Shown: one piece after another, positions 4,360 through 33,216 of the stretch
Numbering within the stretch: the stretch's first letter is position 1
How the letters are laid out: each line of letters begins with the position of its first letter
From: an uncultured Clostridia bacterium
GTDB lineage: Bacteria > Bacillota > Clostridia > Oscillospirales > CAG-382
Direction: 5' to 3'
Assembly (NCBI GenBank): GCA_944375955.1
Contig: CALWBE010000026.1
Location: 2,291-66,290, forward strand
DNA: 64,000 nucleotides
The notes under the pieces: generated by a model
Seen by the model: only the letters and a program-made list of their open reading frames with translations
What the model was told of the DNA's origin: nothing
Database searches by the model: none
Made by a program: the position numbers and the translations under genes

Positions 4360-4516
4360 CGTTGTGTTCCCTCCGTTTTTTACATGTGCTTTTATAAAAT
4401 AAAAGCTGTACCACAATTATAACATAAAATATGATTTATGTAAATAGATATATTAATTTTACAAACAGTTAAAAATATTGTATATTTTAACAAAAATATT
4501 TTTAATATCATGTGGA

Positions 4517-16095: not shown

Positions 16096-17664
16096 TCAAA
16101 ATCTTTTATTAGTTTTTACTATGTTTGCAGATCCTTTTCTGCGTGATATAATTCTTGATATCGCATTTTTCATGTCCTTTGAAGATGCAAATGCCGCAAT
16201 TGAAAAAAGCAGAGGAACAGTTATGCAAACGGCGGCGCGAATCGAGAACGAAGGGATATAACGGCAGAGCGAATATGAGCATGCACATGAAAAGACAGAA
16301 GTTATCCCGTATTTTAAAAGCTTAGCGTAGTATGGGAGAACCGACCGTGAAAATCCGTATTTGTAAAGAATATAAGGTTCATACCAAAGACATATGATAA
16401 ATGATGTCAGCATCTGACCTAAATATATTCCGCCAAGCCCAATTTTTTTGCCGAAATACGCGGAAAACCCGAGAGAGCATATAAGTTCGAGAAAAGGTTT
16501 TATACGCTCTTTGCGGTATAAACCGTATCCATCCCGAAAAATCATAACAGTACGTCTCAGCCCGTTTACGAAAAAATGCATCGCCAGTATACACGATACC
16601 TGCATAGGAAGTGCAAGACTGCTTCCAAGCCATACTGTTATTATATCTCCTGACATTACAAACAGTACTGAAGTACATATATTTACTAAAATAAAAGACG
16701 CAAGCCCTGTCATTCCGAAAACTTCTTCCGCCCTCTTTACAGAAGCGGCTGCTCCCAGATTCCCCACGCTTGCCGACAATGCGCCTATAAGTGTTACCGA
16801 AAGCATCGACGCATAGCTCAATAGCATATTATAGTTTGAATATATGCCGTTTGCTGCAACTCCAAAAAGATATACTACTATAAAGTTGTCTGCTGTACGC
16901 AAAAGAGTTCCGCCTATATTTGATGGCTGCAAAAACAATATTTCCCGTCTCAGCGAACGCATATATTTTTTATCTTCAGGAGGTTTCCCCCTAAATGAAA
17001 TTTCAGGATAAAGACGTCTTATATATGATATTAGAAAAATATCTTCCGTGACGCACAAAAGTGTATGCACAGAAAGATATACTATATAATTCTTTGTCAA
17101 AAGCAAAGCTGCGCTTTCAAACAATACTGTTATTGCTCCGAAAAAATAGGAAAATATCTGACTGATATAGTTTTTCTGATCTGCGAATACCAGCAGTTTT
17201 TCGCTTGAAAAAAGATAACCTATTGAATTTGACAATAGATATATAAAAAACACCGAGTAAAGAGTCTTTGTATCTCTGAAATCTTCAACCATGTTCGGAA
17301 GATACGGCATTAAGAATAGACCTGCCGCCATCGTAATTGAGGCAGATATAAAACACAGCTTTCTGTAACAGGCAAGATATGCCGATACCGAATAATAGTC
17401 TTTTTGTGCAAGCGGTTTATACAGACGGTATATCGCTGCAGATGATGCTCCGAAATCAAGCAGCGAAAGCACAGCGGTCATATTTCCGATAAGACTGCCT
17501 AATCCTACAAATTCTTTGCCTAATACAAGCACAAAGACTTTTCTTGAAAAAAAACTCAGAATTAGATTTATAAATATTCCTGCAACCGATGCCCTCAGGT
17601 TTTTTGCCGCGGCGTCAGTGCGGGTTATGTCTTTTTTTTCATATATGCGCGGCTGTGTTGCCAT
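16096..17664 (-). CDS. Wzx-like oligosaccharide/polysaccharide flippase (MOP superfamily)
   Basis: 522 aa with about 12-14 TM segments. N-terminus typical of polysaccharide biosynthesis proteins (NLRASVAGIFINLILSFFSRKVFVLVLGKEFVGL). Confidence 0.7.
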   Translation of the reverse strand: MATQPRIYEKKDITRTDAAAKNLRASVAGIFINLILSFFSRKVFVLVLGKEFVGLGSLIGNMTAVLSLLDFGASSAAIYRLYKPLAQKDYYSVSAYLACYRKLCFISASITMAAGLFLMPYLPNMVEDFRDTKTLYSVFFIYLLSNSIGYLFSSEKLLVFADQKNYISQIFSYFFGAITVLFESAALLLTKNYIVYLSVHTLLCVTEDIFLISYIRRLYPEISFRGKPPEDKKYMRSLRREILFLQPSNIGGTLLRTADNFIVVYLFGVAANGIYSNYNMLLSYASMLSVTLIGALSASVGNLGAAASVKRAEEVFGMTGLASFILVNICTSVLFVMSGDIITVWLGSSLALPMQVSCILAMHFFVNGLRRTVMIFRDGYGLYRKERIKPFLELICSLGFSAYFGKKIGLGGIYLGQMLTSFIICLWYEPYILYKYGFSRSVLPYYAKLLKYGITSVFSCACSYSLCRYIPSFSIRAAVCITVPLLFSIAAFASSKDMKNAISRIISRRKGSANIVKTNKRF

Positions 17665-17934
17665 TTCCCCTAATTTCCCTCCCGCGTTCTGCCGTACATT
17701 TTATTCTATTTTTGTTTGCCGGAAAATATGTATACTTATATATTACTTGCCTTTCTGCTTGGTCATATAACAATTGTACTAATTAAGATACTTACTTGTT
17801 TATCCAGTATTCTTCATATGTCATATTTACGGTTTGTCAATGGTAATTTTTAACAAATTTTTCAAATTATTCCCATTTTTTTAATAAGCATATTGTGCAT
17901 ATACACAAAAATTAGAACTTGTGTTCGATTTTCC

Positions 17935-17963
17935 TTGACTTTTTGTTAAAAATATAGTATAAT
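17935..17963 (+). promoter_or_regulatory. Near-consensus sigma-A type promoter upstream of the capsid module
   Basis: TTGACT (17935-17940), 17-nt spacer, TATAAT (17958-17963). Confidence 0.6.
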
Positions 17964-17971
17964 TATGGCAC

Positions 17972-18014
17972 AACAGCAGAACAAAAGTTCTCATATTTGC
18001 TCTGCTGTTTTTTT
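17972..18014 (+). terminator. Intrinsic-terminator-like hairpin in the 5' leader of the capsid module
   Basis: AACAGCAGA (17972-17980) pairs with TCTGCTGTT (18001-18009), with an inner CAAA/TTTG extension and a 10-nt loop. Seven consecutive T at 18008-18014. No upstream + strand gene for it to terminate. Confidence 0.55.
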
Positions 18015-18066
18015 GAGACGTATAAAGAACAAATGTTCAATAATTACAACGGAGGTGTATGACAGC

Positions 18067-18315
18067 ATGAGAGAAGAAAGTTTTTCCTGCGGAGAGAGGG
18101 AAATATTGAGAGAAGAGGAGTTTATTGACGGGCTGTATTGTTTTGACGACAGCCGCGACCGTGAAAAGTGCATGTACTGCGGATATGACATATTAGAAGG
18201 GGAGGAAGCGGTAAAAGTATATTCTACTGGAGATATTATACACAGAAAATGCTGGATAGACTATGCGGAGGATAATATAGAAGAACTTTGTCTGCCGCTC
18301 GGAGAACGAATATAG
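18067..18315 (+). CDS. Small acidic Cys/His-rich protein (CxxC...HxxC, zinc-ribbon-like), function unknown
   Basis: ORF 17965..18315. Start moved to ATG 18067, 11 nt after GGAGG at 18051-18055. Motifs CMYCG and HRKC. Confidence 0.45.
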   Translation: MREESFSCGEREILREEEFIDGLYCFDDSRDREKCMYCGYDILEGEEAVKVYSTGDIIHRKCWIDYAEDNIEELCLPLGERI

Positions 18316-18334
18316 ATGAGACGAGGGGGAGAAA

Positions 18335-18730
18335 ATGATGGTGAATTACCGTACAAAAAAGGGCAGAGAATTTTTAGAGCTTAAAATAAAAGAATATTTT
18401 GAACTATGCGACAAAAAAAACGCTGAAGATGAGAAAGAAAAGAAATCAGTAAAGCCGTATACACTTACAGGGCTGCTGTATCATCTTGATATGAGTGCGG
18501 ACGAGCTTGAGGAACTGTCAAAAAGCAGAAAGCTGTCGCGCACAATAGGAAGCGCGAAAAGAAAAATAGAAGCTTATATTGAGGAGAACGCATTAAACGG
18601 ACGTCTTTCGCCGACAGCAGCGATAAACAGTTTAAAAGAGCACTTCGGGTGGAATGAGAAGAACGGCGGAATTATGTATGACAGGCTGTCGGTAGAGCTT
18701 TCAGATGAAGTGAAAGAGCTTGGAGCATGA
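18335..18730 (+). CDS. terS: Phage terminase small subunit (candidate)
   Basis: 131 aa immediately upstream of TerL, overlapping it. The segment KPYTLTGLLYHLDMSADELEE resembles the HTH region of small terminases. Confidence 0.6.
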   Translation: MMVNYRTKKGREFLELKIKEYFELCDKKNAEDEKEKKSVKPYTLTGLLYHLDMSADELEELSKSRKLSRTIGSAKRKIEAYIEENALNGRLSPTAAINSLKEHFGWNEKNGGIMYDRLSVELSDEVKELGA

Positions 18731-20061
18731 GTGCTAAGAAAAAGAAGCTTGTACTTAAAGGAAGTCCGCAGGAACGTCAAAAGCAGTTTTTTCGGGCATC
18801 TGAAAAATATGTAGCTTACGGAGGGGCTCGCGGCGGAGGTAAAAGCTGGGCGCTCAGGCGAAAAGCGGTTCTTATGTGTCTTAGATATAAAGGATTATCG
18901 GTGCTGATTGTGAGAAAAAGCTATGCTGAGCTTATGGAAAATCATATAAGGCCTCTTCGCGCGGAACTTGGAGATGCGGTAAAGTATACCGATTCACGAA
19001 AAACCTTTGAGTTTCCAAACGGATCGAGAATAAAAATGGGCTACTGCGACGCAGAATCGGACGTTGACAGATATCAGGGGCAGGAATTTGACATAATAGC
19101 ACTTGACGAAGCCACACAGCTTACCGAGTATCAGTTTCAGACATTTAAAGCCTGTCTGCGAGGTGCAAACGAATTTCCAAAGAGAATGTACATAACCTGC
19201 AATCCCGGCGGTATAGGACATGGGTGGGTAAAGCGGCTGTTTATCGACCGGGAATACCGTAGCGGAGAAAACGCGTCGGATTATAAATTTATTCCGGCAA
19301 GTGTATATGACAATAAAATTCTTTTAAAATATGACCCGGATTATCTACGCAGACTTGAAAGTTTGCCTCCGGCGCTTCGTGACGCATGGCTGTACGGAAA
19401 ATGGGACGCATTTGCAGGCCAATTTTTTCCTGAATTTGATATGGCGATGCACACAGTCGAGTCTTTTATTCCCGACAGTTCGTTCTCAAAATACTGCGCG
19501 ATAGACTACGGCCTTGATATGCTTGCCGCTGTTTTTGTAGCGCTATCCCCGGACGGCAGCGCTATTGTATATGATGAGGTTTATGAAAGCGGGCTTATAG
19601 TAAGCGAGGCGGCAAAACGCATTTTAGAAAAATCCAACGGGGTATGTCAGTTTATTGCCCCTTCCGATTTATGGAACAGACAAAAGGATTCCGGCAAAAG
19701 CATATACGAGCTTTTTGCTGAAAACGGAGTTTTCCTGACAAGGATAAATCCCGAAAGAATACAGGGCTGGCTTTGTCTTAAAGAATGGCTTAAGCCTTAT
19801 GAAAAAGACGGCAAAAGGGACAGCCGCATGAAAATCTGCCGTAACTGTACAAATTTGATACGCTGTCTCCCTCAGCTTTTGTACGATGAGAGAAATCCCG
19901 GGGATGCCTCTACTAAGCCTCATGAAATAACCCATGCTCCCGACGCTTTAAGATATTTCGCGTCTTCAAGGGCATTTTTTAAATCTTTTTCGAAAGGTAC
20001 CGATAAACAGGTTAAGCTTGCGGAAAAGCTTAAAAAACATTCATATAAGATAAATAAATAG
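18727..20061 (+). CDS. terL: Phage terminase large subunit
   Basis: Walker A GGARGGGKSWA and Walker B DIIALDEAT, with a C-terminal nuclease-like half. ATGA overlap with the preceding ORF. Confidence 0.9.
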   Translation: MSAKKKKLVLKGSPQERQKQFFRASEKYVAYGGARGGGKSWALRRKAVLMCLRYKGLSVLIVRKSYAELMENHIRPLRAELGDAVKYTDSRKTFEFPNGSRIKMGYCDAESDVDRYQGQEFDIIALDEATQLTEYQFQTFKACLRGANEFPKRMYITCNPGGIGHGWVKRLFIDREYRSGENASDYKFIPASVYDNKILLKYDPDYLRRLESLPPALRDAWLYGKWDAFAGQFFPEFDMAMHTVESFIPDSSFSKYCAIDYGLDMLAAVFVALSPDGSAIVYDEVYESGLIVSEAAKRILEKSNGVCQFIAPSDLWNRQKDSGKSIYELFAENGVFLTRINPERIQGWLCLKEWLKPYEKDGKRDSRMKICRNCTNLIRCLPQLLYDERNPGDASTKPHEITHAPDALRYFASSRAFFKSFSKGTDKQVKLAEKLKKHSYKINK

Positions 20062-20128
20062 TCAGTTCAGGTAATCGTATATATTAAATCTGTCCGAAGT
20101 TATACAAAATTATGTTGAAAAGGAGCAT

Positions 20129-21919
20129 ATGATGAAAAAAACAGTCAGCCGGAATGAAGCCGGCGGTATTTATGACTATTCCGAAAAGTCTGAAAGAGAA
20201 AAAACCATTGCCGGTCTTATAAGGCTTGCAGAAAAAAGCAAAAGTCCGATAACGGCATACTGGAAGAAAATGAGAAGCTATTATGACGGTGACCATGAAA
20301 TTCGAACTCACAATGCCGCTTTTACTGCCGAACAGGATATACCATGGGAACCCGCACAGGCAACAGACGGATTTATTCACGTTGAAAGCCAGGTAGATAC
20401 AAACGTTCCCGACTTTGAGTTTTCTCCACGCGCATCAAAGGATTATGAGCTTGCAAAACAGCGGGAAAAAATTACGCGTTATATCTGCGATATAGGAAGG
20501 CTTGAACTCAAAAATGCAGTAAATGAACGCCGGCTTAATATTCTCGGTTCCGCGGTATATAAAATTTGCTGGGACAGCGCGGCTTTTGACGGATATCGCA
20601 AGGGAGATATCTCAATAGATACACCTAAACCTGAACAGATTTTTACCGATCCGTGTTCTGCTACTGTCGACGGTTGTGAATATATAGGATATACTTACCG
20701 CCTGCATAAGCAAAAGGCGAAGCGAATATTTGAAAATGATTTTAAAAACTCAGATTCGGATATGTCTGATTATATAAACGCTTATAGATCCGGTTTAAGT
20801 TATTATGAATATACGGGAGAAGAAAGAAATTCATACGGTATGGCGGAAGATACTATAACCGTAACAGAATGGTGGTTCAGGCAGCCGTATGACGGTCAGT
20901 GCACAATAAAATGCAATATCGACGGAAGACAGGTGAACGTATTTTACAAATGGAAAGCAGGAGATATCGCGTTATCTATTCTTCTTGGCGACAAAGAGAT
21001 AAGATATATACCCAAATACTGGAAAAATACCGCCTGCTCAATGTTTCCTTTTGTTATTTACAGCAAGATTCCTAAGGAAGACTGCATATGGGGAAAAAGT
21101 GAGCTTGAAGCTATAATTCCGCTTATTGACGCATCAGACAGAGAACTTGCTTATGCGCAGTTAAACTCGGCTTTTTCATCAAACGATATAATTGTCGCCG
21201 AAGAAAACGCGCTTGCAGATGACGGAGAACTTGACAATTCACCCGGAGCGGTATGGAAATTGCGACCCGGAATGATGGGAAAAATACAAAGACTCGGAAA
21301 CGGCGCATATTCCGAAAACAACCAGTATTCAAACAGTAATTACTGGCGGGATATAATGAAGGATACCACGGGAAATTATGAGCTTAATCAAGGTGTCGAG
21401 CCTACAAGAGTTACGACCGCGTCAGGAATTGCGCTGCTGAATGAACGTGCTAAAAACCGCCAGATGATGAAAAAGGTAATAAAATCGGAAGGCTTCAGGC
21501 GATTATACGAGCTTATTGACCGTACGGCGCTCGAGTATTATGATGACGACCGAATACTTGAAATAGGGGCGGCTGAAAAAGGAGAAAAAATTTACGGATT
21601 TAAAGATTATGCCGAATATCCTGACAGTACCGGCGAAGCTTATATGCCTGTCATAGATGTAAAAATACATATAGGAGACGGAATAGCCAACTCAAAGGCG
21701 TTTACCGTACAGGCTCTGAGTGAACTTATAAAGGTTCCGATAAATGCGGATAATTTCAGGCTTGTTCAAAGTTATGTTGAGTTAGTAGGCTTGCCTATGC
21801 GCGGTCAGATATGCGATGCGCTGGAAAAGAAATACGGACTTGCAGAAGAAAGCTCAGATGTGAAAAGTGATTTTAAATCATTGCTGAATAATGTCTCGGA
21901 GGATAACTATGTACGATGA
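20129..21919 (+). CDS. Phage portal protein (candidate)
   Basis: 596 aa directly after TerL. Size and position are typical of a portal. AAGGAG SD; the second ATG at 20132 is also possible. Confidence 0.7.
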   Translation: MMKKTVSRNEAGGIYDYSEKSEREKTIAGLIRLAEKSKSPITAYWKKMRSYYDGDHEIRTHNAAFTAEQDIPWEPAQATDGFIHVESQVDTNVPDFEFSPRASKDYELAKQREKITRYICDIGRLELKNAVNERRLNILGSAVYKICWDSAAFDGYRKGDISIDTPKPEQIFTDPCSATVDGCEYIGYTYRLHKQKAKRIFENDFKNSDSDMSDYINAYRSGLSYYEYTGEERNSYGMAEDTITVTEWWFRQPYDGQCTIKCNIDGRQVNVFYKWKAGDIALSILLGDKEIRYIPKYWKNTACSMFPFVIYSKIPKEDCIWGKSELEAIIPLIDASDRELAYAQLNSAFSSNDIIVAEENALADDGELDNSPGAVWKLRPGMMGKIQRLGNGAYSENNQYSNSNYWRDIMKDTTGNYELNQGVEPTRVTTASGIALLNERAKNRQMMKKVIKSEGFRRLYELIDRTALEYYDDDRILEIGAAEKGEKIYGFKDYAEYPDSTGEAYMPVIDVKIHIGDGIANSKAFTVQALSELIKVPINADNFRLVQSYVELVGLPMRGQICDALEKKYGLAEESSDVKSDFKSLLNNVSEDNYVR

Positions 21920-22709
21920 AAATATAAATAAAATAGGAGATAAACCAGAAAAGCGAGAAGAAAGACTTTATACAAGCGAAGATCTTGAGAATATTGTTGA
22001 ACAAAGGTTATCCCGTGAGCGGAAAAATAATGAGTCTTATGCAAAAATACGTGAATTAATAGGAATACTGAGGCGTACCGAGCCCTTTAAAAAATTATCT
22101 AACGCGGCTGTAGCGGAAAAAATAGCAATATTGGCACAAAACAGCGCGGAACAAAACAAAGCAATAGCCGAATCTGATATAAAAGCTGCGAATCCCGACG
22201 CGGCAGAGAACAGTATTACGGAAATTGCAAAGGATACTGAGACTTTTAACGCTGACAATACCGGAAAAGGCTTGCCGGGATCAAATTTAAGATCAGACAC
22301 AGAGCCTGCCGACGCTTTGTTGGCGGATAACGAAAAAATACGTAGACTTAATGAAATTGACAGATTTTGTCTTTCTTACGGAAAAAGCGCGCTTGAAAAT
22401 GCTCTTAAAGACCGGGCTTTCAGAGAATTTTGTGCTGGTAAAGACGGCGATATAATGTCTCTTTACGAAAGCTATCAAAATTTTCTTGAAATGCTTTCTT
22501 CAAGTCCGGCAGCAAAAAGATACAGAGCGGCTGAACAAGGGCTTGCTTCCACGGGATTCTCCGGAAACGCCTCGCCGTCGGCGGATTACGGCAGTTTGCT
22601 GACGGAAAATCAAAAACGTATCGCCGCATCTGCCGGAATGTCTTACCGTCAGTATGCCGAATTACTTGAACAGATACCGTCAAAAATGCCGGGGACAAGA
22701 AAGGTTTGA
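21909..22709 (+). CDS. Capsid scaffolding protein (DUF4355-like)
   Basis: YTSEDLENIVEQRLSRERKN is a hallmark of DUF4355 scaffolds. Helical, acidic, low-complexity middle. C-terminal LTENQKRIAASAGMSYRQYAELL. Start set to ATG 21909, 7 nt after GGAGG. Confidence 0.7.
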   Translation: MYDENINKIGDKPEKREERLYTSEDLENIVEQRLSRERKNNESYAKIRELIGILRRTEPFKKLSNAAVAEKIAILAQNSAEQNKAIAESDIKAANPDAAENSITEIAKDTETFNADNTGKGLPGSNLRSDTEPADALLADNEKIRRLNEIDRFCLSYGKSALENALKDRAFREFCAGKDGDIMSLYESYQNFLEMLSSSPAAKRYRAAEQGLASTGFSGNASPSADYGSLLTENQKRIAASAGMSYRQYAELLEQIPSKMPGTRKV

Positions 22710-22825
22710 TACCGAAAATAACCAAAAGCGCATTTAAAATGAGACTCTGAATCAAATATTCCGAGTTTTTTAATAAACACGGGCTTGTCTGCAGCAAAAT
22801 ACAAATTAAAATAAGGAGAAAAAAT

Positions 22826-23470
22826 ATGGATTATTTTATGAATTCCGCAGGGATAAGTGTTCCCTGCATAAGAGAATATGAAATTGAAACCGATGAGAAT
22901 CTGAAAAAAGGAACAATTATGACACTATCTTCCGGAGCAGCGGCAAAAGCTTCCGGAAGCGACACGGTTTTAGGTATTCTTGCAGAAGATTATAATACCG
23001 AAAAAGATCAGCTTAATCCAAGAAGCGGAAGCGGCAGAGCAAGAATTATTGTGTCGCCCGGCACTATATGCCGTCAGCCATTATATGAAACCGTTGCTGA
23101 AGAAAACGCAACTGCAACTTCTTTAAAAATAAACGGTCATACAGTTCCGTCAGAAGCAAATTTGTTTAAAGGCGGATATATTAAGCTTGTTTATAAATCG
23201 GATACTTCTGAAAATGCGGATTTTGTGGGAAAAACTCGCAAAATTACAGCTTCATCCAGCGATACTCTTACCGTTGAATCAGGAGGTATTCCAAACACTG
23301 GAGATATATATGCCATTCTCCCGCCTGCCGGTTTTTCATATATTGCTCTTGCGTCTGACGGAACAAGCTTTGATCTTTCGTCTTCAAAAAGCAGTGTTGC
23401 TCAGATTGTTTCATGTATGCCTGAAAATGATTACTGTGAAATCGGTTTTTTAAAGACTTTCTTTAACTGA
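22826..23470 (+). CDS. Hypothetical virion protein (between scaffold and capsid genes; possible decoration protein)
   Basis: 214-aa ORF with SD AAGGAG. No recognisable motif. Confidence 0.5.
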   Translation: MDYFMNSAGISVPCIREYEIETDENLKKGTIMTLSSGAAAKASGSDTVLGILAEDYNTEKDQLNPRSGSGRARIIVSPGTICRQPLYETVAEENATATSLKINGHTVPSEANLFKGGYIKLVYKSDTSENADFVGKTRKITASSSDTLTVESGGIPNTGDIYAILPPAGFSYIALASDGTSFDLSSSKSSVAQIVSCMPENDYCEIGFLKTFFN

Positions 23471-23516
23471 TACGGTACCGCATTTTCAGATCTATATAAT
23501 AAAGGAGAATTAAATA

Positions 23517-24434
23517 ATGAACGATATCTATACATGGCCCCAGGATTTATATCCGCTTGTAAAAAAAAGATTTGATTTAAGATATGCCGACAGGATGGAT
23601 GTGATATCCAATCTTGCGGAGGTTATAACTCAGGACTCGGTAGATTACAGATTTGAAGGAGTAGGAGGATACGGGGAAATTCCTGTATATGACGGCTCTA
23701 ATATAGCCGAAGCTGATCAGAAAAGGGCATTTATTACTACAATCACGCCGAAAGAACATGCTTTAAAAGTAACTATGTCATATAAAAAGACAAAGATCGA
23801 TCAGTCAAAAGAATCCGAAAAGGTCGGAACAAGACTTGCAGATTCCGCTTATATGACGGTATTAAATGAATTTTACCGCCTTTTCGGCAATGCGTTCGAG
23901 ACTGTCGGTTCTGACGGTGTAGCTTGGGCGTCTGATCAGCATAAGATAAATTCTGAGACTGACGAAACTTTTTCCAATGTTATTCACAGCGCACTTTCTG
24001 TATCCGCAATAACTTCAGCTCAGACCAAAGCTTCTGCTTTCGTTACACCTGACGGGCTGCCTTTTGCGGGAAATTTTGATCTGCTTCTTGTAAGTCCTGA
24101 ACTTGAACCGAAAGCTAAGGAAATATGCGGTCCAAATTCAAGATTGATACCCGAAAATAATCCTGATGCCGATGCGCCGAGAAATGCCGCAAACCCCATT
24201 TACGGCATGAAGTATCTTGTTGTCGGCGGAGGCGGAATAGGTCTTGCCGGCAAAAAATGGGCGATAGCCGATTCAATGCTTATGCCGGAGATTCTTAAGC
24301 TTATATATATTACCGAACCTACCGTGCTTGTGGCAAATCAGTCAAATCCCTTGCTTACAGACTATATAGGATATGTTGATTTCGGATTCGGATTCGGAGA
24401 TGCAAGACCTATAATCTTCTCTGATCCGGCATAA
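23517..24434 (+). CDS. Major capsid protein (candidate)
   Basis: 305 aa after the scaffold gene, with SD AAAGGAG. Size and position fit a capsid protein. A strong hairpin follows the next small ORF. Confidence 0.6.
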   Translation: MNDIYTWPQDLYPLVKKRFDLRYADRMDVISNLAEVITQDSVDYRFEGVGGYGEIPVYDGSNIAEADQKRAFITTITPKEHALKVTMSYKKTKIDQSKESEKVGTRLADSAYMTVLNEFYRLFGNAFETVGSDGVAWASDQHKINSETDETFSNVIHSALSVSAITSAQTKASAFVTPDGLPFAGNFDLLLVSPELEPKAKEICGPNSRLIPENNPDADAPRNAANPIYGMKYLVVGGGGIGLAGKKWAIADSMLMPEILKLIYITEPTVLVANQSNPLLTDYIGYVDFGFGFGDARPIIFSDPA

Positions 24435-24450
24435 CGGGAGGAATATATAA

Positions 24451-24723
24451 ATGTATGTAACAAGTCAGCCAGGCAGAATTACTGCCGCGAGAACTTATAA
24501 TATTCCGTCAAAAAACGAACTTCGTATCGGGGGCGACGGCATTGAATGCCGTGTGCGCATCGGCGGTGAAGGAATAATACTTATGGCGTCCGGAAAAGAA
24601 GACATTTCTTTAGGATATGAAGCTAAAAACGGAGAAACATTTGATTTTTCCGGAGAAGCGGTATTTTATAACGACGCGACATATGAAATTCCGGTTTCGG
24701 TTATAACGATGGATTTTATGTAA
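24451..24723 (+). CDS. Hypothetical 90-aa protein of the capsid module
   Basis: ORF with SD GGGAGG, tightly coupled to the capsid gene. Confidence 0.5.
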   Translation: MYVTSQPGRITAARTYNIPSKNELRIGGDGIECRVRIGGEGIILMASGKEDISLGYEAKNGETFDFSGEAVFYNDATYEIPVSVITMDFM

Positions 24724-24740
24724 TAAAGCAAACTTGCTTT

Positions 24741-24768
24741 CGGCGGGGAAAGCTATTTTCCCCCGCCG
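24741..24768 (+). terminator. GC-rich hairpin after the capsid gene pair (possible attenuating terminator)
   Basis: CGGCGGGGAAAG / TTTTCCCCCGCCG stem with one bulge. Only a weak T tail (GTTCGTATTG). Confidence 0.35.
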
Positions 24769-24835
24769 TTCGTATTGAAAAATTTGATATTTTAAAGGCC
24801 TGTACAGGCAGTTTAAAAATACAAAGGAGAAAAAA

Positions 24836-25804
24836 ATGAACAAAAGCGTCTATACTCTCGGACGGCTTAAATCCGAAGTTTTTCGCGCGCTTGACGAATA
24901 CAGTTCAAACGGACTGGGACATGAAATTTTTTCGGGTGGAACCGGAGATATTGACAAAAGATTTATCCCTGCATTAAATTCTGCGATAAGGCTTATTTTT
25001 CTTTCAAGCGCAAGACAGGAAAAAACATGTTTAGTAGCTTTACAAAAACCTGAAAAACTAATGGCAATATGTGATTTTTCTGTTGCCGGAAATGAAAAAA
25101 GAAAAATTATGCTGCCTCTTAATTCCGGCGCGGTAAGCTTTGATTTTAGCGGGAACGGATCGTTTTTTATTCTTGATTCCGGCGAAGGCATCATTTCGGA
25201 ACATAAGCTATCTACAGAATACGGCAATATAGAAAACTGTAAAAAAATAATTCAGTCAAATGCCGTTTGTATTGAATTTACAGCTTCTTCCGAAGAATTT
25301 TTATCTGTATCCGGCTTATATTCATATAATATTTCGTCGGTCCGCGGCTGCCTTGAGGAAAAATTTTTGCCGGACGGAAAAAGAGTTTTCTGTGCTTTTC
25401 CGCCAAGATGTGCTGAAATATGCTCTGTAAGCACCGAAAAACGTGGAAGAAGAATACCTTGTCCTTCGGATATTTTTAATTTTTCTGAAGGCTTGCTTTC
25501 CTGCGAGGAAAAATACTCTGGTAATTATAATATAACTTACTGTGAATATCCTGAGGAAATCCCTGAAAATGCTTCTCCGGATACAGAGCTTTCTTTATCT
25601 CCGGCAGCTTTCGGCGCCGCAGTATATGCCGTTGCCGCAGAACTATGCGCAAGAGAGGACGGCGAAATGTATTCAAGATTGACTTATAAATACAGGGAAA
25701 TGCTTGCAAATACGTATCCCGTAGAGAATTATAGTTTAAAAAACAGCTTTTTTGCGGGCGGCCTTTTCGGCAGAAGAAAAAAAGGACGGAATTTTTTCAG
25801 ATGA
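24836..25804 (+). CDS. Hypothetical virion protein (322 aa)
   Basis: ORF with SD AAAGGAG. No recognisable motif. Confidence 0.55.
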   Translation: MNKSVYTLGRLKSEVFRALDEYSSNGLGHEIFSGGTGDIDKRFIPALNSAIRLIFLSSARQEKTCLVALQKPEKLMAICDFSVAGNEKRKIMLPLNSGAVSFDFSGNGSFFILDSGEGIISEHKLSTEYGNIENCKKIIQSNAVCIEFTASSEEFLSVSGLYSYNISSVRGCLEEKFLPDGKRVFCAFPPRCAEICSVSTEKRGRRIPCPSDIFNFSEGLLSCEEKYSGNYNITYCEYPEEIPENASPDTELSLSPAAFGAAVYAVAAELCAREDGEMYSRLTYKYREMLANTYPVENYSLKNSFFAGGLFGRRKKGRNFFR

Positions 25805-25928
25805 TATTAAAAAAAATATATATAATACTGTTGTTGTCTGTTGGGAAAATGTCGGTTTTTATCCGGACTTCAAAAGCTGTTTTAGGTGTGTTTTATAATA
25901 TTTGCGGCTGCATAAGGAGGAAAAATAT

Positions 25929-27782
25929 ATGGCATATAATCCCGTAAACCATGCTGATATAAGCTCGTATAGAAATTATATGTTTACAGTAAGCGAACTG
26001 TCCGGAGGATATAATGCAGCCGGAAAAGTTGCGGCAGATAATCAGGTATCGCAAATTGAAAATATGTATTTTCAGGACGGCAATATCATATCAAGGGGCG
26101 GATTAAGCCGAGTCGGGGAAAAGATTACAGGAACTTTTCACAGCATTTTGCGTGAAGAATTTTGCGGCAGTATTCTTTTTCATTGCGGGACCGCCATATA
26201 TCGATTTGACGGAGAGGCGGCTGAATCCGTGAAGACACAGATACCGGACGAATCAAGTTTATTTCTGCGTATGAACGGAAAAGTATATTTATATTTAAAA
26301 AGCGGCAAAATATATGAGATAGAAAACGATTTTTCATGTATCGAAAAAGAGGCATATGTTCCTTTAATAATAGAAAATGCAAATCAGGCGCTTTCCTCAT
26401 ATGATGTCTGCGAACCTTTAAATATGATGACAAGAAGAGTAAAATGCAGCTTTAATATTGTGGATGGAATAGCTTCAAAAATGTACAACGTTCCGTATGA
26501 TATCGATGAGAATTATCCGATAAACATATATATGGACGGAGAAGAAGTCGACGTATGCTATGCTTCAAGAACCGATAAAAAGCGAATAATCGTAAACGGA
26601 AACGATACAGGTTTGGATATGGGCGACGAAATCACATTTGAATATACCATAAAAGACGAAGATGACAATTTTGACGAATATTTTGCAAAAATATTCGGTT
26701 GTACCGCGGCGTTTACTTACGGAGGAACTTCCAAAGACGGAACACGTGCGTTTTTTACAAGCAATGATGATTATCCGGGCATGTATTTTAGAAGCGAGCT
26801 TAAAAATCCTTTGTATTTTCCGGACACGGGATCTGATACGCTTGGCGACGGGAGCGAAAAGGTGACCGGCGCGGAAAAACGATATGAAAAGATGTATTTT
26901 TTTACAGAAAAACATGTATATGCTATGTCATATGAATTTTCAGCTGATAACGGAGCCTCATTCGATGTTGTACAGGTTAACACCGGTATCGGTTGCAATA
27001 TGAAAAACACAGTGCAGGCGGTAGACAATACACTTGTTTTTGGAAATTACGAATCGGGAATATATCTGCTTCAGTCAACCGAAATATTTGAAGAATTAAA
27101 CGTAAGACATATATCTGTCAATCTTAACGGCAAAAACGGCGGCGGGTTTTTTAATGAAGCCGGAGCCGTATATTCATCATGCGATATTGACAGAAAATAT
27201 TTTTTGTTTGACGGAAATTTGCTTTATATGTGGGACTATGGCAGAACACCTTATTATGAAAACGGTGATTTAAGAAAAGCAGAAGAAAGACTGGCATGGT
27301 ATATTTTTTCGGGTTTTGACGGATGTATAAGTCTTTTTTCGCTTAAAAACAAGCTTTATTTTTTAAGAGGTTCTGATGAAACAGAAATAATGTTGTATAA
27401 TTCCGCAATCGCAGAAGATACTGAATTTGATGATGAAGGAAATACGGTCAATGTTTCTGTAAAAAGCTGTTTTATGACAAAAAATTACAATTTCGGCGAT
27501 TCATATTCAGGAGTGAGGAAAAGGCTTCTTTATTTTGCATTTGACTATGAGTTTTTTGAAAACTTAAAGGCAGATATTACTATAAACTTTTACGGGGACG
27601 GGGAAAAATTTTATACATTTCATCCGGAACTACCGCTGAGATCAGGTAGAATAAAGCTTAGATTGCCGCCATATTATGCACGTTCGTTTGCAGTGGAATT
27701 TTCTTTTATATCAGGCAGAACCGGTATTTCAGAGCTTGCGTTTTACTGGCAGCCTTCCGAGCGGATAAAAGACAATATGTGA
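25929..27782 (+). CDS. Hypothetical large virion protein (617 aa; possible tail/nozzle component)
   Basis: ORF 25902..27782. Start set to ATG 25929, 8 nt after AAGGAGG. Composition is beta-rich. Confidence 0.6.
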   Translation: MAYNPVNHADISSYRNYMFTVSELSGGYNAAGKVAADNQVSQIENMYFQDGNIISRGGLSRVGEKITGTFHSILREEFCGSILFHCGTAIYRFDGEAAESVKTQIPDESSLFLRMNGKVYLYLKSGKIYEIENDFSCIEKEAYVPLIIENANQALSSYDVCEPLNMMTRRVKCSFNIVDGIASKMYNVPYDIDENYPINIYMDGEEVDVCYASRTDKKRIIVNGNDTGLDMGDEITFEYTIKDEDDNFDEYFAKIFGCTAAFTYGGTSKDGTRAFFTSNDDYPGMYFRSELKNPLYFPDTGSDTLGDGSEKVTGAEKRYEKMYFFTEKHVYAMSYEFSADNGASFDVVQVNTGIGCNMKNTVQAVDNTLVFGNYESGIYLLQSTEIFEELNVRHISVNLNGKNGGGFFNEAGAVYSSCDIDRKYFLFDGNLLYMWDYGRTPYYENGDLRKAEERLAWYIFSGFDGCISLFSLKNKLYFLRGSDETEIMLYNSAIAEDTEFDDEGNTVNVSVKSCFMTKNYNFGDSYSGVRKRLLYFAFDYEFFENLKADITINFYGDGEKFYTFHPELPLRSGRIKLRLPPYYARSFAVEFSFISGRTGISELAFYWQPSERIKDNM

Positions 27783-27809
27783 TCAAAAGAGAAAGGAATT
27801 TATAAATAT

Positions 27810-29162
27810 ATGGCTACAAAATGGAAATATGCGACGGTTCCTGCGGCACAGAGACTTGATATGCTCAGAAGCGGAAATGATGAGCTTTACAAAGAGGAAA
27901 TCGCCCGTACCAAGGATGCAATAAGCAATAGACTTGCCGCGGGTCTTGATGTAGACGAGCAGATGAAGTGGGCGGATTCAGTAGCATATCAGTATAATCT
28001 TTCAAAAGCGGCGGATATGGGTATAGATGAAAAAAACGTAGCAAAAACTGGCTATGCGCAAAGACTTTTCGGAGATATGACGGAAAGTGTAACAAAAGAT
28101 AAAGTATCTTCCGTGTCAGCACCTCAGAAGCTAACAAGCAGTAAATATTACGAGGATTATACGGGATATGACAGAGACAGTCTTGCCAAATCGGTTATTG
28201 ATTCTTATGTAAGCGGAATAAATAAACGCGCCGCAAGCCTTAATCAGGCATATAAGAACTATGCCGATAAAATTTCAGAGGAATATGATAAAAAAATTGC
28301 GGAACTTCAACAGCAGTACAGAAAAGATGAAAAACTGTACAGGGAAGCGCGTATAAATGACGGAACGTCAGAATACAGCGGAAGAACGATGACCGATCAG
28401 TTAAAAAGCCGAGAGCAGCTGCTTGATATGATAACACAATTAAGAAATGAAAAAGATTCATATCTTAGCGCAGCACAGGAATCTCTGAGAGAACAGCTTT
28501 ACTCGCTGAGCGGCGATGCGATGCAGTCGGCGGCGGATGAATATTACAGATATAATGCGCTGCTTTCCGACGAAAAAGAGGCGGAATATCAAAAACAGCG
28601 TGACGCAGCCGAAGATGATAAATGGTGGCAGAATTTCTCATTTGAAAAGCAACAGGCTGACATTGCCGCAGCTGAAAGAGCTGACGAACGCGCCGCTGCT
28701 CAAATTAAGGCTGAAAACGATCTCCGTATTGCGGAAGCAGAGCTTGCTCTTGCGAAAAGCGAAAATGACAGGGATTATGAAAAATGGCTTAAGGAATTTG
28801 AGGCTGACATAAAATATCAGAATTCAAAACTTAACTCGGAAACGGCTTTGAATAACGCAAAGCTTGCACTTGACCGCGAAAAATTTGAATATGAAAAATC
28901 GTCGGATGAAAGAGAAAATTCAGATATTTCCGCATATTTGCCTGAAAGTACAGTACAGGAAATAAAATATGGAAATTCATATAAGGCATATCTTGATTTG
29001 GCAAAAAAAGTTTCTTCTATGGTTGTATTTAATGAAAAAAGTAACGGATATGTTAAAAAATATTCTGATGAACAAATACTAAGCTTAATTAAAACATTTA
29101 ATATCAGCGTTGAGGAAAAAGAATCCATTTGCAAAGAAATCGGTATAAAATACATAGGATAA
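27810..29162 (+). CDS. Coiled-coil K/E/A-rich protein (450 aa; possible internal/ejection protein)
   Basis: Long helical heptad-like stretches (AAERADERAAAQIKAENDLRIAEAELALAKSEND). Last ORF of the tight cluster. Confidence 0.6.
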   Translation: MATKWKYATVPAAQRLDMLRSGNDELYKEEIARTKDAISNRLAAGLDVDEQMKWADSVAYQYNLSKAADMGIDEKNVAKTGYAQRLFGDMTESVTKDKVSSVSAPQKLTSSKYYEDYTGYDRDSLAKSVIDSYVSGINKRAASLNQAYKNYADKISEEYDKKIAELQQQYRKDEKLYREARINDGTSEYSGRTMTDQLKSREQLLDMITQLRNEKDSYLSAAQESLREQLYSLSGDAMQSAADEYYRYNALLSDEKEAEYQKQRDAAEDDKWWQNFSFEKQQADIAAAERADERAAAQIKAENDLRIAEAELALAKSENDRDYEKWLKEFEADIKYQNSKLNSETALNNAKLALDREKFEYEKSSDERENSDISAYLPESTVQEIKYGNSYKAYLDLAKKVSSMVVFNEKSNGYVKKYSDEQILSLIKTFNISVEEKESICKEIGIKYIG

Positions 29163-29247
29163 GTATAATTTCCGGTATATTTAAAATGTTGTGGGACACA
29201 ATAATGTACGGGTATCTGCATATATTTTTGAAAGGACCATATGCAAA

Positions 29248-29556
29248 ATGAGCATAAAAAATAAAAAAACGCTTCTTGCCGCACTTTTAATACTGACGGT
29301 GACCGGTTCTTTTTGCAGCTGCACCAGAGACGATAATAATAAAGACGATGCAAACAGCGTAAATAATGACATGACCGATGACAACAAAGATATTACTGAT
29401 AAAAATAACAACAACGATAATGAAAATGATATGAATGACAATATCAATGATAATGATGTCAACGGAACAAATGACAATAATGCCAACACGGACAGCAATA
29501 TGTCCGCTGGAAGTATCAACAATCCGTCCCCTGACTCTGCCAACATTATGCCGTAA
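29248..29556 (+). CDS. Small secreted/lipoprotein-like protein with an Asn/Asp-rich low-complexity tail
   Basis: ORF 29191..29556. Start set to MSIKNKKTLLAALLILTVTGSFCSC (signal peptide with Cys). The rest is about 70% N/D/T/S. Confidence 0.5.
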   Translation: MSIKNKKTLLAALLILTVTGSFCSCTRDDNNKDDANSVNNDMTDDNKDITDKNNNNDNENDMNDNINDNDVNGTNDNNANTDSNMSAGSINNPSPDSANIMP

Positions 29557-29583
29557 CTTACTGGGTTAATTTTCAGAAATACA

Positions 29584-29618
29584 AAAGGAAAGGCAATTTA
29601 ATTGTCCTTCCTTTTTTT
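29584..29618 (+). terminator. Intrinsic terminator
   Basis: Stem AAAGGAAAGGCAAT / ATTGTCCTTCCTTT (one mismatch, one G-U), 3-nt loop. The T run of the 3' arm extends to 29618. Confidence 0.55.
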
Positions 29619-29779
29619 ATGTGAAAAATCAACAAAAATTACAAAACAAATTCAAACAACATGACGAAAGCAAATTTTTTGATTTTATTGAAATAATTCC
29701 TTGTTTATGGTATAGTTGCTATGTAAGGAGTATTTTGCTCTTTTCACTAAAACTATAATTTTGAAAGGAATATTTTATT

Positions 29780-32694: not shown

Positions 32695-32731
32695 ATAAGC
32701 GGCATTGATAAAAATTTGCAATGCCGCTTAT
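32695..32731 (+). terminator. Perfect 13-bp hairpin after the beta-helix pair (no T tract on the + strand)
   Basis: ATAAGCGGCATTG (32695-32707) pairs with CAATGCCGCTTAT (32719-32731), 11-nt loop. Followed by A-rich sequence, so the terminator call is weak. Confidence 0.35.
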
Positions 32732-32761
32732 AAAAAATGTAATGTACTGAAAGGAAAATAT

Positions 32762-32926
32762 ATGAAAAAAATCCTTTTCGGAATAGCGCTTATTTTATTT
32801 GGTTTTTATTGCACATATATTTCTGAAATAGCCCGTTGGGGCATTGTAACTATTGCAGGAATAATTTTTTCGGTTGCAGGAATTCTTGTTTCGGTATTTG
32901 CTGTACTTGGGGAAGACAAGAATTAA
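32762..32926 (+). CDS. Small 2-TM membrane protein (54 aa) with a charged C-terminus
   Basis: MKKILFGIALILFGFYCTYISEIARWGIVTIAGIIFSVAGILVSVFAVLGEDKN. SD AAAGGAAAA. Start taken inside ORF 32705..32926. Confidence 0.45.
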   Translation: MKKILFGIALILFGFYCTYISEIARWGIVTIAGIIFSVAGILVSVFAVLGEDKN

Positions 32927-33175: not shown

Positions 33176-33216
33176 AAAACCCTTCTGAAAAAGAAAATTT
33201 TTCAGAAGGGTTTTTA
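33176..33216. terminator. Bidirectional intrinsic terminator
   Basis: AAAACCCTTCTGAAAAA / TTTTTCAGAAGGGTTTT, a perfect hairpin flanked by A and T tracts. Lies between convergent genes. Confidence 0.7.

Follow-up and report, generated by a model that had tools for sequence, protein, structure and literature searches.

In the 64,000-nt stretch of DNA analysed here (the window; uncultured Clostridia bacterium, GCA_944375955.1, contig CALWBE010000026.1, positions 2,291-66,290 of the forward strand), eleven co-directional ORFs lie tightly packed between positions 18067 and 29162 of the plus strand. Their coordinates are those of the initial annotation and, in line with it, all are intact. Intergenic gaps range from -29 to 124 nt, with a 4-nt overlap between the genes of the small (TerS) and large (TerL) terminase subunits. 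A strong Shine-Dalgarno site had been reported for each ORF; a clear one of the GGAGG/AAGGAG type was detected at nine of the eleven, with none clear at the translationally coupled TerL gene or at the scaffold gene. The unit has been extended to a conserved twelfth gene and an intrinsic terminator (Table 1), and the locus and its predicted transcript are 11.6 kb long. The terminator region (29557-29640) folds at -16.4 kcal/mol (z = -2.3), a stability matched by one of 200 shuffled sequences.

Table 1. Genes and regulatory features of the locus, in window coordinates
Feature	Position	Strand	Basis or remark
LexA box A (putative), GAACTTGTGTTC	17915-17926	+	3' end 9 nt upstream of -35 hexamer
Sigma-70/sigma-A-type housekeeping promoter, TTGACT-17-TATAAT	17935-17963	+	11/12 consensus positions
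LexA box B (putative), GAACAAAAGTTC	17979-17990	+	16 nt 3' of -10 hexamer, over expected transcript start
LexA box C (putative), GAACAAATGTTC	18027-18038	+	Leader, 28 nt before first start codon
g01, small zinc-finger protein, 82 aa	18067-18315	+	CxxCG...DxxHxxC motif; role unknown
TerS, small terminase subunit, 131 aa	18335-18730	+	PF16677 3e-16; phrog_606 2e-14
TerL, large terminase subunit, 444 aa, ATPase and nuclease	18727-20061	+	Terminase_3/6N; phrog_979 2e-50
Portal, 596 aa, P22/SU10 type	20129-21919	+	P22_portal 2e-14; SU10_portal 2e-10; phrog_156 3e-29
Scaffold candidate, 272 aa	21891-22709	+	Alternative start 21909; position between portal and capsid genes
g06, head-module protein, 214 aa	22826-23470	+	Candidate cement, decoration or minor capsid protein
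Major capsid protein, 305 aa, HK97 fold, Mu gpT type	23517-24434	+	Family profile against solved capsids
g08, small conserved protein, 90 aa	24451-24723	+	Same position in most loci; role unknown
g09, probable head-to-tail adaptor, 322 aa	24836-25804	+	Position and fold matches
g10, podovirus tail nozzle (hub), 617 aa	25929-27782	+	AF2 model and Foldseek
g11, charged-residue-rich protein, 450 aa	27810-29162	+	Candidate needle, fibre or ejection protein; position after nozzle
g12, small acidic lipoprotein, about 102 aa	29248-29556	+	Orthologues directly after g11; role unknown
Intrinsic terminator, 14-bp interrupted stem then U run	about 29583-29622	+	RNA fold

Promoter and putative LexA operators

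The promoter preceding the block is the best site within 17.5-33.3 kb of the window, and an equivalent matching 11-12 of 12 consensus positions was found in 12/12 related loci. It lies within the sole cluster of GAAC-N4-GTTC motifs in the window, where three perfect matches (boxes A, B and C alone) occur against 0.6 expected. Measured from the start of the -35 hexamer, box A is found at -20 to -23 in 12/12 loci and box B at +40 to +44 in 9/12, with the position of box C kept in 10/12. Upstream of the block in 14 loci such boxes are 20-fold enriched. One relative, the IMG/VR fragment L010, lacks them. The motif is identical to the consensus for LexA in Bacillus and Clostridium, and the core of box C is that of the C. 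difficile recA operator, GAACAAATGTTT (PMC4234289). The regulated host-type promoter suggested in the initial annotation is, from its sequence, a near-consensus promoter bracketed by three conserved putative operators for the host DNA-damage repressor LexA; both LexA binding and SOS induction are inferred.

Colicins, pyocins and PBSX-like elements are classically regulated by direct LexA-type control. As SOS control is typical of killing particles (PBSX, pyocins), gene transfer is not the sole possible use of the locus, and the predicted operators lend weight to a reading in which the block encodes an SOS-induced killing or altruistic-lysis particle (PBSX/bacteriocin-like) that would damage or lyse competitors once DNA damage has triggered its production, with packaged DNA incidental and undelivered. 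Further support comes from a sister clade, in which an endolysin-like CHAP/SH3 gene lies in the same direction as the operon.

DNA-packaging, head and short-tail proteins

Profile searches confirmed the earlier assignments of TerS, TerL, portal and capsid protein. Across 13 TerL sequences no variation occurs at the Lys-Ser of Walker A, the Glu of Walker B or several Asp residues of the C-terminal half, and the window protein shows a weak match to a PBSX terminase model (1e-21, below the cut-off). TerS is not detectably related to the 207-226-aa Terminase_2 TerS of related true phages. A stretch within it, PYTLTGLLYHLDMSADELEEL, was read as helix-turn-helix-like, so that sequence-specific packaging cannot be excluded. 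The capsid protein meets Phage_capsid_4 at 1e-4, below the Pfam cut-off, and does not match the NCBIfam N4-gp56 model; its family profile matches the solved structures 8rkc/8rkx ('Mu GpT domain') at 1.6e-18 and 9jod at 8e-15. Capsid size, and thus whether the head is too small for its own 11.6-kb locus, is not readable from the sequence.

The remaining head-module genes are less firmly assigned. For the DUF4355-like scaffold of the initial annotation, gene position supports the candidate role and the gene is kept in all loci, phage relatives included; the DUF4355 link amounts to a single weak match among 14 orthologues (0.021). The g06 gene is likewise retained by every locus and by the phage relatives, and weak matches among 14 orthologues to Peptidase_G2 (four, best 1.4e-5), Phage_cement_2 (two) and an XM1 minor capsid protein (one) make its product a candidate cement, decoration or minor capsid protein. 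At the head of the operon, the g01 motif is invariant in nine orthologues spanning all clades, with weak matches to Prok-RING_1 and phrog_4331, and most loci have a g08 counterpart in the same place (about 30% identity).

The initial annotation had left the 617-aa ORF as an unknown, which fold comparison has amended. The AF2 model of g10 (pLDDT 86, pTM 0.84), the 617-aa ORF at 25929, was matched by Foldseek to the cyanophage A4 tail (1.4e-18), T7 gp12 (1.6e-16) and P22 gp10 (8eap_D, 8.6e-16), as well as to the nozzles of SU10, Sf6 and HRP29, all nozzle matches having a probability of 1.00 and e-values of 1e-18 to 1e-14. It also matches phrog_3287, a 'virion structural protein', at 2e-14. On this model g10 is a podovirus tail nozzle, which indicates that a short tail is encoded and that the predicted particle would not be tail-less. 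For the ORF at 24836 (g09; AF2 pLDDT 82), the matches in BFVD are uncharacterised phage proteins (best 1.6e-18), together with podovirus entries named 'Head to tail adaptor' and one tail protein of a podophage, these at a TM of about 0.4; the PDB fold search was uninformative. As g09 is always located directly upstream of the nozzle gene, phage relatives included, it is regarded as a probable head-to-tail adaptor. The portal family, the order portal-scaffold-capsid-adaptor-nozzle and the nozzle fold are shared with podoviruses of the P22, SU10 and T7 types.

Downstream of the nozzle gene, g11 is present throughout the close clade at 37-53% identity and lacks a family match, remaining a candidate needle, fibre or ejection protein; a coiled-coil had been read in it in the initial annotation. 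Orthologues of g12 with a lipobox and a shared C-terminal motif (SPDSANI) directly follow g11 in four loci (L001, L002, L003, L007), and ORFs of 83-95 aa fill its place in five others (L016, L017, L023, L024, L025). No receptor-binding protein was identified with confidence. Known phage-derived killing particles are contractile or flexible tails. The present locus encodes a nozzle only, and no toxin or immunity gene was recognised, both of which speak against a killing particle.

Conservation, selection and missing phage functions

At least 12 species-level chromosomal loci, on contigs as long as 685 kb, carry the block in the same order and with every ORF intact, all of the carriers being uncultured metagenome-assembled genomes (MAGs). 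The gene order is common to loci L001-L007, L013-L018, L024 and L025. The capsid family is narrow in sequence space: when 1.84 billion proteins are clustered at 50% identity, it accounts for only 132 clusters. At 90% identity it forms 616, and the best 120 of these are all at least 72% identical. A neighbourhood is shared as well: a trio of Ddl, Mur-ligase and hydrolase genes adjoins the block in two loci (L023, L025) and lies 25 kb away in the window, and a membrane-protein gene is located divergently upstream in six loci. Between the window and locus L001, identity is 73% for the Mur ligase, 72% for the hydrolase, 78% for the portal, 77% for TerL and 89% for the capsid protein. With 89-94% identity across species, the capsid protein exceeds the flanking housekeeping genes (72-73%) in conservation.

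Values of dN/dS are well below 1 for every gene, at 0.03-0.32. In the pair L003 and L007, for which dS is unsaturated (0.29-0.64), the lowest ratio is that of the capsid (0.025), followed by the portal (0.10), TerL (0.11), g11 (0.16), the nozzle (0.20), g06 (0.24) and the scaffold candidate (0.32). TerS, TerL, portal and capsid are the most conserved genes (0.03-0.11), which points to selection on DNA packaging itself and is a further argument against a killing particle; that reading is considered unlikely, though it stays in contention.

Pfam scans of the other large ORFs in the 64-kb window revealed host genes only, in agreement with the earlier observation that integrase, repressor, replication and endolysin genes are lacking; no lysis gene (holin or endolysin) was found there either. 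The flanks of 12 related chromosomal loci likewise yielded no integrase, replication or lysis gene. In the Pfam-annotated loci L013-L018 and L023-L025, no other phage functions occur within 10 kb on either side, except for one strain-specific recombinase in a flank of L016, absent from the sister strain; for L002-L007 the flanks were compared with window genes by similarity alone, without Pfam. A 522-aa ORF in the left flank of the window, labelled a Wzx-like flippase in the initial annotation, matched no Pfam, NCBIfam, PHROG or PDB entry, and the label was rejected in favour of an unknown family.

A small locus of head and packaging genes with a dedicated TerS could also be a phage satellite with mobility of its own, a PICI-like island that forms its own small capsids and depends on a helper phage for its remaining functions and its spread, and a 2026 preprint notes that Oscillospirales clusters of this type can be confused with capsid-forming satellites (10.64898/2026.07.08.737213). 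At this locus, however, neither an integrase, a primase/replicase nor an AlpA-type regulator was found, no flanking direct repeat was convincing, and a nozzle and a probable adaptor of its own are encoded. The neighbourhood is kept between species and divergence tracks that of housekeeping genes, which fits vertical inheritance rather than site-specific mobility. A satellite is regarded as very improbable.

The nearest phage relatives are complete podovirus-like genomes of uncultured phages (L011, L012, L019, L021), whose capsid proteins are 39-51% identical and whose core gene order is the same. They encode late activators resembling RinA/ArpU and a larger TerS of the Terminase_2 type, along with numerous short early ORFs, additional head and tail genes and large tail proteins, whereas the block has in place of these a LexA-box promoter that none of them possesses. 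As structural genes alone are left at the locus, a decaying or recently truncated prophage remnant without present function could be envisaged; it deserves next to no credence. In at least 12 species-level loci the full set of 11-12 ORFs is intact, even where repeat arrays fill the intergenic gaps, dN/dS is 0.03-0.32, the capsid is more conserved than neighbouring housekeeping genes, and the promoter/operator layout is conserved. A single recent insertion copied by assembly is excluded by the 40-90% protein divergence of the loci. Intact ORFs, synteny, dN/dS, flanks and conserved operators uphold the earlier preference for domestication, and on these sequence data recent truncation of a prophage is regarded as excluded.

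Known particle systems and proposed function

In January 2026, FpGTA I of Faecalibacterium prausnitzii was described (Borodovich et al., Nat Commun 2026; PMC12946183), a Faecalibacterium operon, similar to the block, that makes 40-nm DNA-filled particles; its authors found no homologues outside Faecalibacterium and leave open the option of a killing particle (PMC12946183). GTA-type packaging of 4-10 kb of host DNA is observed in many Oscillospirales (PMC12946183). The idea of a domesticated podovirus-like gene transfer agent (GTA) is hence no longer new in kind. Both systems are chromosomal Oscillospirales operons (about 10 kb in FpGTA I) with a podovirus-like morphology, predicted for the block; both lack integrase and replication genes, and have TerS, TerL, portal, capsid, a nozzle matching the same solved structure (P22 gp10, 8eap) and a terminal charged 'TolA-like' protein, the position of g11 being held in FpGTA I by an abundant virion protein annotated 'TolA'. 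Judged by accession numbers, FpGTA I has two genes between capsid gene and nozzle. The FpGTA capsid is named by the N4-gp56 model, whereas that of the block is Mu-gpT-like and on this basis assigned to another family, although no direct sequence comparison was made. Between portal and capsid, FpGTA has one gene (Prp) and the block two, neither matching Prp; the block further differs in having a zinc-finger gene at its start and a lipoprotein gene at its end. The FpGTA paper reports no LexA control (PMC12946183), and what is new here is the near-consensus promoter bracketed by three conserved LexA boxes.

Like the block, RcGTA and CcGTA are vertically inherited head, packaging and tail clusters under purifying selection and host regulators, without replication or integration genes, and have accessory loci elsewhere in the genome. 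They differ in their siphovirus-like build (long tail and tape measure protein), their unrelated proteins and their control by CtrA and GafA/GafYZ, whereas the block has its operators directly at the structural promoter. LexA is known to act only indirectly on the GTA of R. capsulatus. PBSX of Bacillus subtilis resembles the proposed system in being SOS-inducible, non-replicating, phage-derived, Gram-positive and able to package host DNA, and differs in its myovirus-like contractile tail, its own Xre repressor and lysis genes, and its nature as a killing particle.

Taken together, the locus is interpreted, with a probability of about 0.7, as a domesticated, SOS-induced, gene-transfer-agent-like DNA-packaging particle system. 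Experimental data are lacking for the block family, and particle formation, host-DNA packaging, release and delivery to recipients are inferred. In the undamaged cell, LexA dimers on the three operators bracketing the strong housekeeping promoter would keep the operon silent; upon DNA damage, activated RecA would promote LexA self-cleavage and the 11.6-kb transcript would be made. Capsids would then assemble and be loaded with DNA by the terminase, and as the locus cannot replicate or excise, this DNA would be mostly host chromosome, resulting in a GTA-like (viriform) particle. Its release would require lysis genes, which are absent from the locus in the carrying clade. The locus itself covers the head, the packaging motor and the core of a short tail, and further parts such as fibres or lysis proteins may have their genes elsewhere. 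As far as sequence can tell, it has become fixed in the chromosome of a clade of uncultured gut Oscillospiraceae/Clostridia, where it is inherited vertically, and it constitutes a strong candidate for a new lineage of GTA-like particles.

Gene products of the proposed particle operon

The eleven co-directional ORFs described in the initial annotation were all recovered in the ORF listing of the window, with an intergenic spacing of -29 to 124 nt within the block and a 4-nt overlap between TerS and TerL. The Shine-Dalgarno sites claimed for each of them occur, as GGAGG or AAGGAG, upstream of most genes but not all. A twelfth gene has been detected after that of the 450-aa protein (g11), both in the window and in the related loci L001, L002, L003 and L007; its product is a small lipoprotein whose C-terminal SPDSANI motif is conserved. 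This gene and an intrinsic terminator downstream of it define the extent of the transcription unit. The GC content of the block (0.38-0.43) is not distinct from that of its surroundings. Profile searches upheld the packaging and head assignments, with TerS matching PF16677 (3e-16), TerL matching Terminase_3/6N and phrog_979 (2e-50), and the portal matching P22_portal (2e-14) and SU10_portal (2e-10); the catalytic residues of TerL are invariant across 13 sequences. As a single sequence the capsid protein has a weak Pfam match (Phage_capsid_4 at 1e-4), and the profile of its family matches the solved Mu-gpT-type capsids 8rkc/8rkx at 1.6e-18. The DUF4355-like scaffold remains a candidate that is supported by its position between the neighbouring genes, a DUF4355 match having been obtained in just one of 14 orthologues. 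Between the scaffold and capsid genes lies that of a 214-aa protein (g06), whose 14 orthologues have weak matches only, to Peptidase_G2, phage cement protein and minor capsid protein. The first gene (g01) encodes a zinc-finger protein with a CxxCG...DxxHxxC motif that is invariant in all clades.

Searches of the PDB by sequence and profile gave no match for g09, g10, TerS or the portal, and fold prediction was therefore needed. A model of the 617-aa protein (g10), built from 30 homologues (pLDDT 86, pTM 0.84), matches solved podovirus tail nozzles at a probability of 1.00 in PDB fold comparison, including those of cyanophage A4 (1.4e-18) and P22 gp10 (8eap_D, 8.6e-16), as well as T7 gp12, SU10, Sf6 and HRP29. 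A short tail is therefore encoded at this locus. The 322-aa protein (g09), whose gene is always immediately upstream of the nozzle gene, was modelled with a pLDDT of 82; comparison with PDB folds returned only generic and uninformative jelly-roll matches (TM < 0.22), while its matches in BFVD are to uncharacterised proteins of phages (best 1.6e-18) and to some podovirus entries annotated as head-to-tail adaptor or as tail protein. Judging from gene position and the BFVD matches, g09 is a probable head-to-tail adaptor. A short GC-rich hairpin just past g08, in the gap ahead of the adaptor gene, may be a partial internal terminator dividing head genes from tail genes.

Coordinates of features in the window and in related chromosomal loci (L002, L014-L018)
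Sequence	Position	Strand	Feature
Window	1048-4416	-	1122-aa SLH-domain cell-wall protein
Window	11468-13225		ATP synthase alpha-subunit ORF, 585 aa
Window	16096-17664	-	522-aa ORF
Window	17915, 17979, 18027 (starts)		Boxes A, B and C, perfect GAAC-N4-GTTC
Window	17935-17963		Promoter, TTGACT-17-TATAAT
Window	about 17964-29622		Transcription unit
Window	17975-18012		Leader hairpin
Window	18067-29556	+	Genes g01-g12
Window	24736-24753		GC-rich hairpin, GCTTTCGGCGGGGAAAGC
Window	29780-31198; 31231-32646		Two tandem beta-helix paralogs, 472 aa each
Window	32705-32926; 32968-33138		Small ORFs, 73 aa and 56 aa
Window	33176-33214		Perfect 17-nt inverted repeat, AAAACCCTTCTGAAAAA / TTTTTCAGAAGGGTTTT
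Window	54679-58370		Ddl, Mur ligase and alpha/beta-hydrolase genes
L002	9793-11211		Sole beta-helix paralog, split into 208-aa and 241-aa ORFs
L014/L015	14303-15700		465-aa CHAP/SH3_3 protein
L016	5668-6500; 11221-12368		Palindromic repeat arrays
L016	18000-18893		297-aa tyrosine recombinase (Phage_integrase)
L017	5523-6496; 11221-12008		Palindromic repeat arrays
L018	4030-4780		Palindromic repeat array

Promoter region and LexA-type boxes

The best promoter match of the region, of sigma-A type, is surrounded by three palindromes, boxes A, B and C, which are the only perfect matches to GAAC-N4-GTTC in the 64 kb (0.6 expected) and remain the only cluster in the window when one mismatch is allowed. 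In Bacillus and Clostridium the same motif is the consensus for LexA operators (PMC4234289), and box C, GAACAAATGTT(C/T), is identical to the core of the recA operator with which binding has been studied in C. difficile (PMC4234289). The 550 bp that precede TerS show a 20-fold enrichment in such boxes over 14 loci. An 11-12/12 promoter occurs in all 12 chromosomal loci, and in every one of them the start of box A precedes the -35 hexamer by 20-23 nt; counted from the start of that hexamer, box B lies at +40 to +44, just past the -10 hexamer, in nine of the 12, and a third box at +82 to +118 in ten. The sequence around boxes and promoter is otherwise unconserved, and the arrangement was not found in the phage relatives. 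Membership of a Firmicutes LexA regulon is marked by an operator at or overlapping the promoter and conserved in orthologous promoters, both of which are seen here, and the host regulatory control that characterises a GTA or viriform is met at sequence level only. We infer from this arrangement that the operon would be directly repressed by host LexA and induced in the SOS response, binding and induction both being inferences. No riboswitch was detected in the leader with Rfam. The leader hairpin was considered as a transcription attenuator and rejected, given that it folds no better than shuffled sequences (z = -0.37) and that its palindrome is box B.

Flanks, relatives and selection

In agreement with the initial annotation, no integrase, repressor, replication or lysis gene was detected when the large ORFs of the 64 kb were scanned against Pfam, and those outside the block are ordinary host genes (the atp operon, glycan enzymes, a sigma/anti-sigma pair, rhamnosidases, Mur ligase and Ddl). 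In the atp operon, the C-terminal half of a delta/OSCP subunit is in frame at the N-terminus of the alpha-subunit ORF (Pfam OSCP on residues 2-76), which is possibly a delta-alpha fusion or an upstream-extended ORF. Replication, integration and repressor modules are also missing from the annotated flanks of L013-L018 and L023-L025, save for the recombinase of L016, which is encoded 1.4 kb past the block end, is lacking in the sister strain L017 and represents an insertion specific to the one strain, without relation to the block. A GTA or viriform is expected to consist of phage-derived structural and packaging genes in the host chromosome with no module for replication, integration or repression, and this is what was found here. 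No convincing att-like repeats flank the block. In the sister clade L014/L015, a CHAP/SH3_3 protein and a metallophosphoesterase are encoded after the nozzle in the same orientation; the former has a PHROG amidase/endolysin match at 1e-9, and in that lineage a lysis function may directly adjoin the block.

The genes flanking the block are of host type: AddA and an oxidoreductase in L013-L015, GH39 and HAD in L016 and L017, AhpC in L018, a YjeF kinase in L023 and FeoB in L024. Rearrangement of the GH39/HAD pair found in the window was rejected as the source of the L016/L017 flank, there being no similarity at E <= 1e-10. In L023 and L025 the block is adjoined by three genes, for Ddl, Mur ligase and an alpha/beta-hydrolase, and the same three lie 25 kb downstream in the window. 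The 522-aa ORF of the window is conserved in six related genomes, as an ORF of 500-520 aa upstream of and divergent from the operon; it has no match in Pfam, NCBIfam, PHROG or PDB sequence searches, in which its proposed identity as a Wzx-like flippase thus found no support.

Downstream of the operon, the beta-helix paralogs adjoin the block in five genomes. Comparison between species resolves them into three orthogroups, ancient and evenly conserved, which usually lie beside the operon; one of the three is missing from the window. They match the GH136-type glycosidase PDB 7v6m at 1e-9, align near full length to the C-terminal part of the SLH-domain cell-wall protein and have no evident N-terminal signal sequence when read by eye. 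A role as tailspikes, for which their position beside the block speaks, was rejected in view of the intervening terminator, a promoter-like site of their own, the GH136 match, the SLH-protein alignment and the ancient orthogroups. It is unlikely that they belong to the particle system, and they look like host cell-surface glycosidases. In L002 the tblastn alignment spans the break in the split paralog, which is either a pseudogene or a sequencing error. Two small ORFs with hydrophobic stretches (by eye) follow the beta-helix genes and end the co-directional run; they have no family match, and nothing supports the holin-like role that was entertained for them. The inverted repeat between the last of these and a convergent nucleotidyltransferase gene is a likely bidirectional terminator.

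The phage-type genomes L011, L012, L019/L020 and L021/L022 contain capsid relatives with 39-51% identity and share the core gene order of the block. Beyond this core they encode RinA/ArpU-like late activators and further head and tail proteins, with numerous small ORFs upstream and large proteins following the nozzle. Their TerS, of 207-226 aa, is a Terminase_2 protein with no similarity to that of the block. Among GenBank phages (tblastn, 50,697 records), the best portal match has 21.6% identity (Bacillus phage PK1), with nothing real for the capsid protein. The domesticated module and its free phage relatives offer a clean comparison: late activator, large TerS and additional tail genes are gone from the domesticated form, which, unlike those relatives, has a LexA-box promoter.

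The initial annotation had left open a recently truncated prophage, while favouring domestication. A portal scan of one genome per GTDB species detected seven Oscillospiraceae/Clostridia MAGs carrying the block, which is whole and in the same order in all five whose contigs span it. Identity of these MAGs to the window is 89-94% for the capsid protein, 69-80% for the portal, 69-77% for TerL, 56-60% for TerS and 38-44% for the nozzle. At 90% identity, homologues of the capsid protein fall into 616 clusters, and the best 120 of these are all at least 72% identical, on contigs of up to 685 kb. An exhaustive HMMER search of 1.84 billion representatives returned only 132 capsid-family clusters at 50% identity; the family is narrow in sequence space yet carried by many genomes. 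Where named, the capsid relatives are hypothetical proteins of uncultured Clostridia, Oscillospiraceae or Ruminococcaceae, no Faecalibacterium name appears among those listed, and the NCBI copies examined are all annotated as hypothetical proteins. Related genomes include at least 12 species-level loci with the block, in a conserved neighbourhood. Between the window and L001, the portal (78%), TerL (77%) and capsid protein (89%) are about as conserved as, or more so than, the host Mur ligase (73%) and hydrolase (72%). For the L003/L007 pair, in which dS is unsaturated, dN/dS ranges from 0.025 (capsid protein) to 0.32 (scaffold candidate), the highest value still being well below 1. The criterion of vertical inheritance with purifying selection is met by these loci, their neighbourhood and the housekeeping-like divergence, without a host phylogeny. 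Palindromic repeat arrays with GC-rich units (e.g., GTTGCCGTGAAATACGAATTCCGATGGTCGGAATTCGATTTCAC...GTTGACATAGAATTT) occupy intergenic gaps in L016-L018, filling the TerL-portal and g08-g09 gaps of the human-gut relative; they look like REP or MITE elements, and their copy number differs between the strains L016 and L017, in which all ORFs are intact. Block conservation, synteny, co-divergence, dN/dS and the intact ORFs beside the arrays together exclude recent truncation and fit a long vertical residence under selection. Domestication is supported by the intact syntenic loci, the dN/dS values and the conserved LexA-box promoter.

Comparison with known particle systems and significance

The closest described likeness is FpGTA I, a 10.5-kb, ten-ORF operon of Faecalibacterium (CP030777, 2536737-2546346; proteins RCH50844-RCH50853) encoding TerS, TerL, portal, scaffold, capsid protein and hypothetical proteins, one of which matches the P22 nozzle 8eap, together with an abundant virion protein annotated as TolA (Borodovich et al., PMC12946183). 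Its particles measure 40 nm and contain about 9 kb of host DNA, and a second locus 125 kb away encodes fibres, a receptor-binding protein, holin and endolysin (PMC12946183); no holin, endolysin, fibre or receptor-binding genes of this kind were found in the 64-kb window. Its authors found no homologues outside Faecalibacterium, reported no LexA/SOS control, and described 4-10 kb GTA-type packaging in many other Oscillospirales with no locus known (PMC12946183); this packaging is not linked to the window locus. The two operons share a length of about 10 kb, TerS, TerL, portal, capsid and nozzle genes, and a nozzle matching P22 gp10. Nonetheless, the FpGTA capsid protein is named by an N4-gp56 model, whereas that of the window has no NCBIfam match at E <= 0.01 and is of Mu-gpT type; two genes rather than one lie between portal and capsid, and the window operon has additional first and last genes. 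The window element is therefore not placed in the FpGTA family, though it is of this recently described kind; there are no sequence orthology data. A cf-PICI satellite would carry an integrase, att sites, replication genes and a regulatory module, none of which were found at the window locus, and would use helper-phage tails without tail genes of its own, whereas the window locus has its own nozzle and probable adaptor.

We consider the block to be a host-controlled, selected particle operon, with a probability of about 0.7. That it truly transfers genes falls somewhat short of even odds, packaging of quasi-random host DNA in pieces shorter than the locus and its delivery to recipient cells both being inferred. 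Held about as tentatively is the proposal of a podovirus domestication independent of FpGTA, giving a family-wide GTA of uncultured Oscillospiraceae that the host has wired directly to LexA, by which DNA-damaged cells would turn their chromosome into transducing particles of the 40-nm class. If this is true, it would be, to our knowledge, the first GTA to have an array of SOS operators for its structural promoter. New here are the assignment of the nozzle and of the probable adaptor, the additional gene g12 with the terminator, the family breadth and synteny, the phage relatives and the conserved LexA-operator promoter. Long-read virome work of 2026 has revealed random host DNA in small capsids from many gut Oscillospirales, with the responsible locus found only in Faecalibacterium. 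The block family is a concrete candidate locus for the other, uncultured Oscillospirales and, should the proposal hold, the missing genetic basis of the orphan 4-10 kb GTA-type packaging signals in gut viromes. Through a LexA/SOS switch, antibiotics and further DNA-damaging stresses of the gut would be directly coupled to the mobilisation of chromosomal DNA in bulk, and such a switch is testable.
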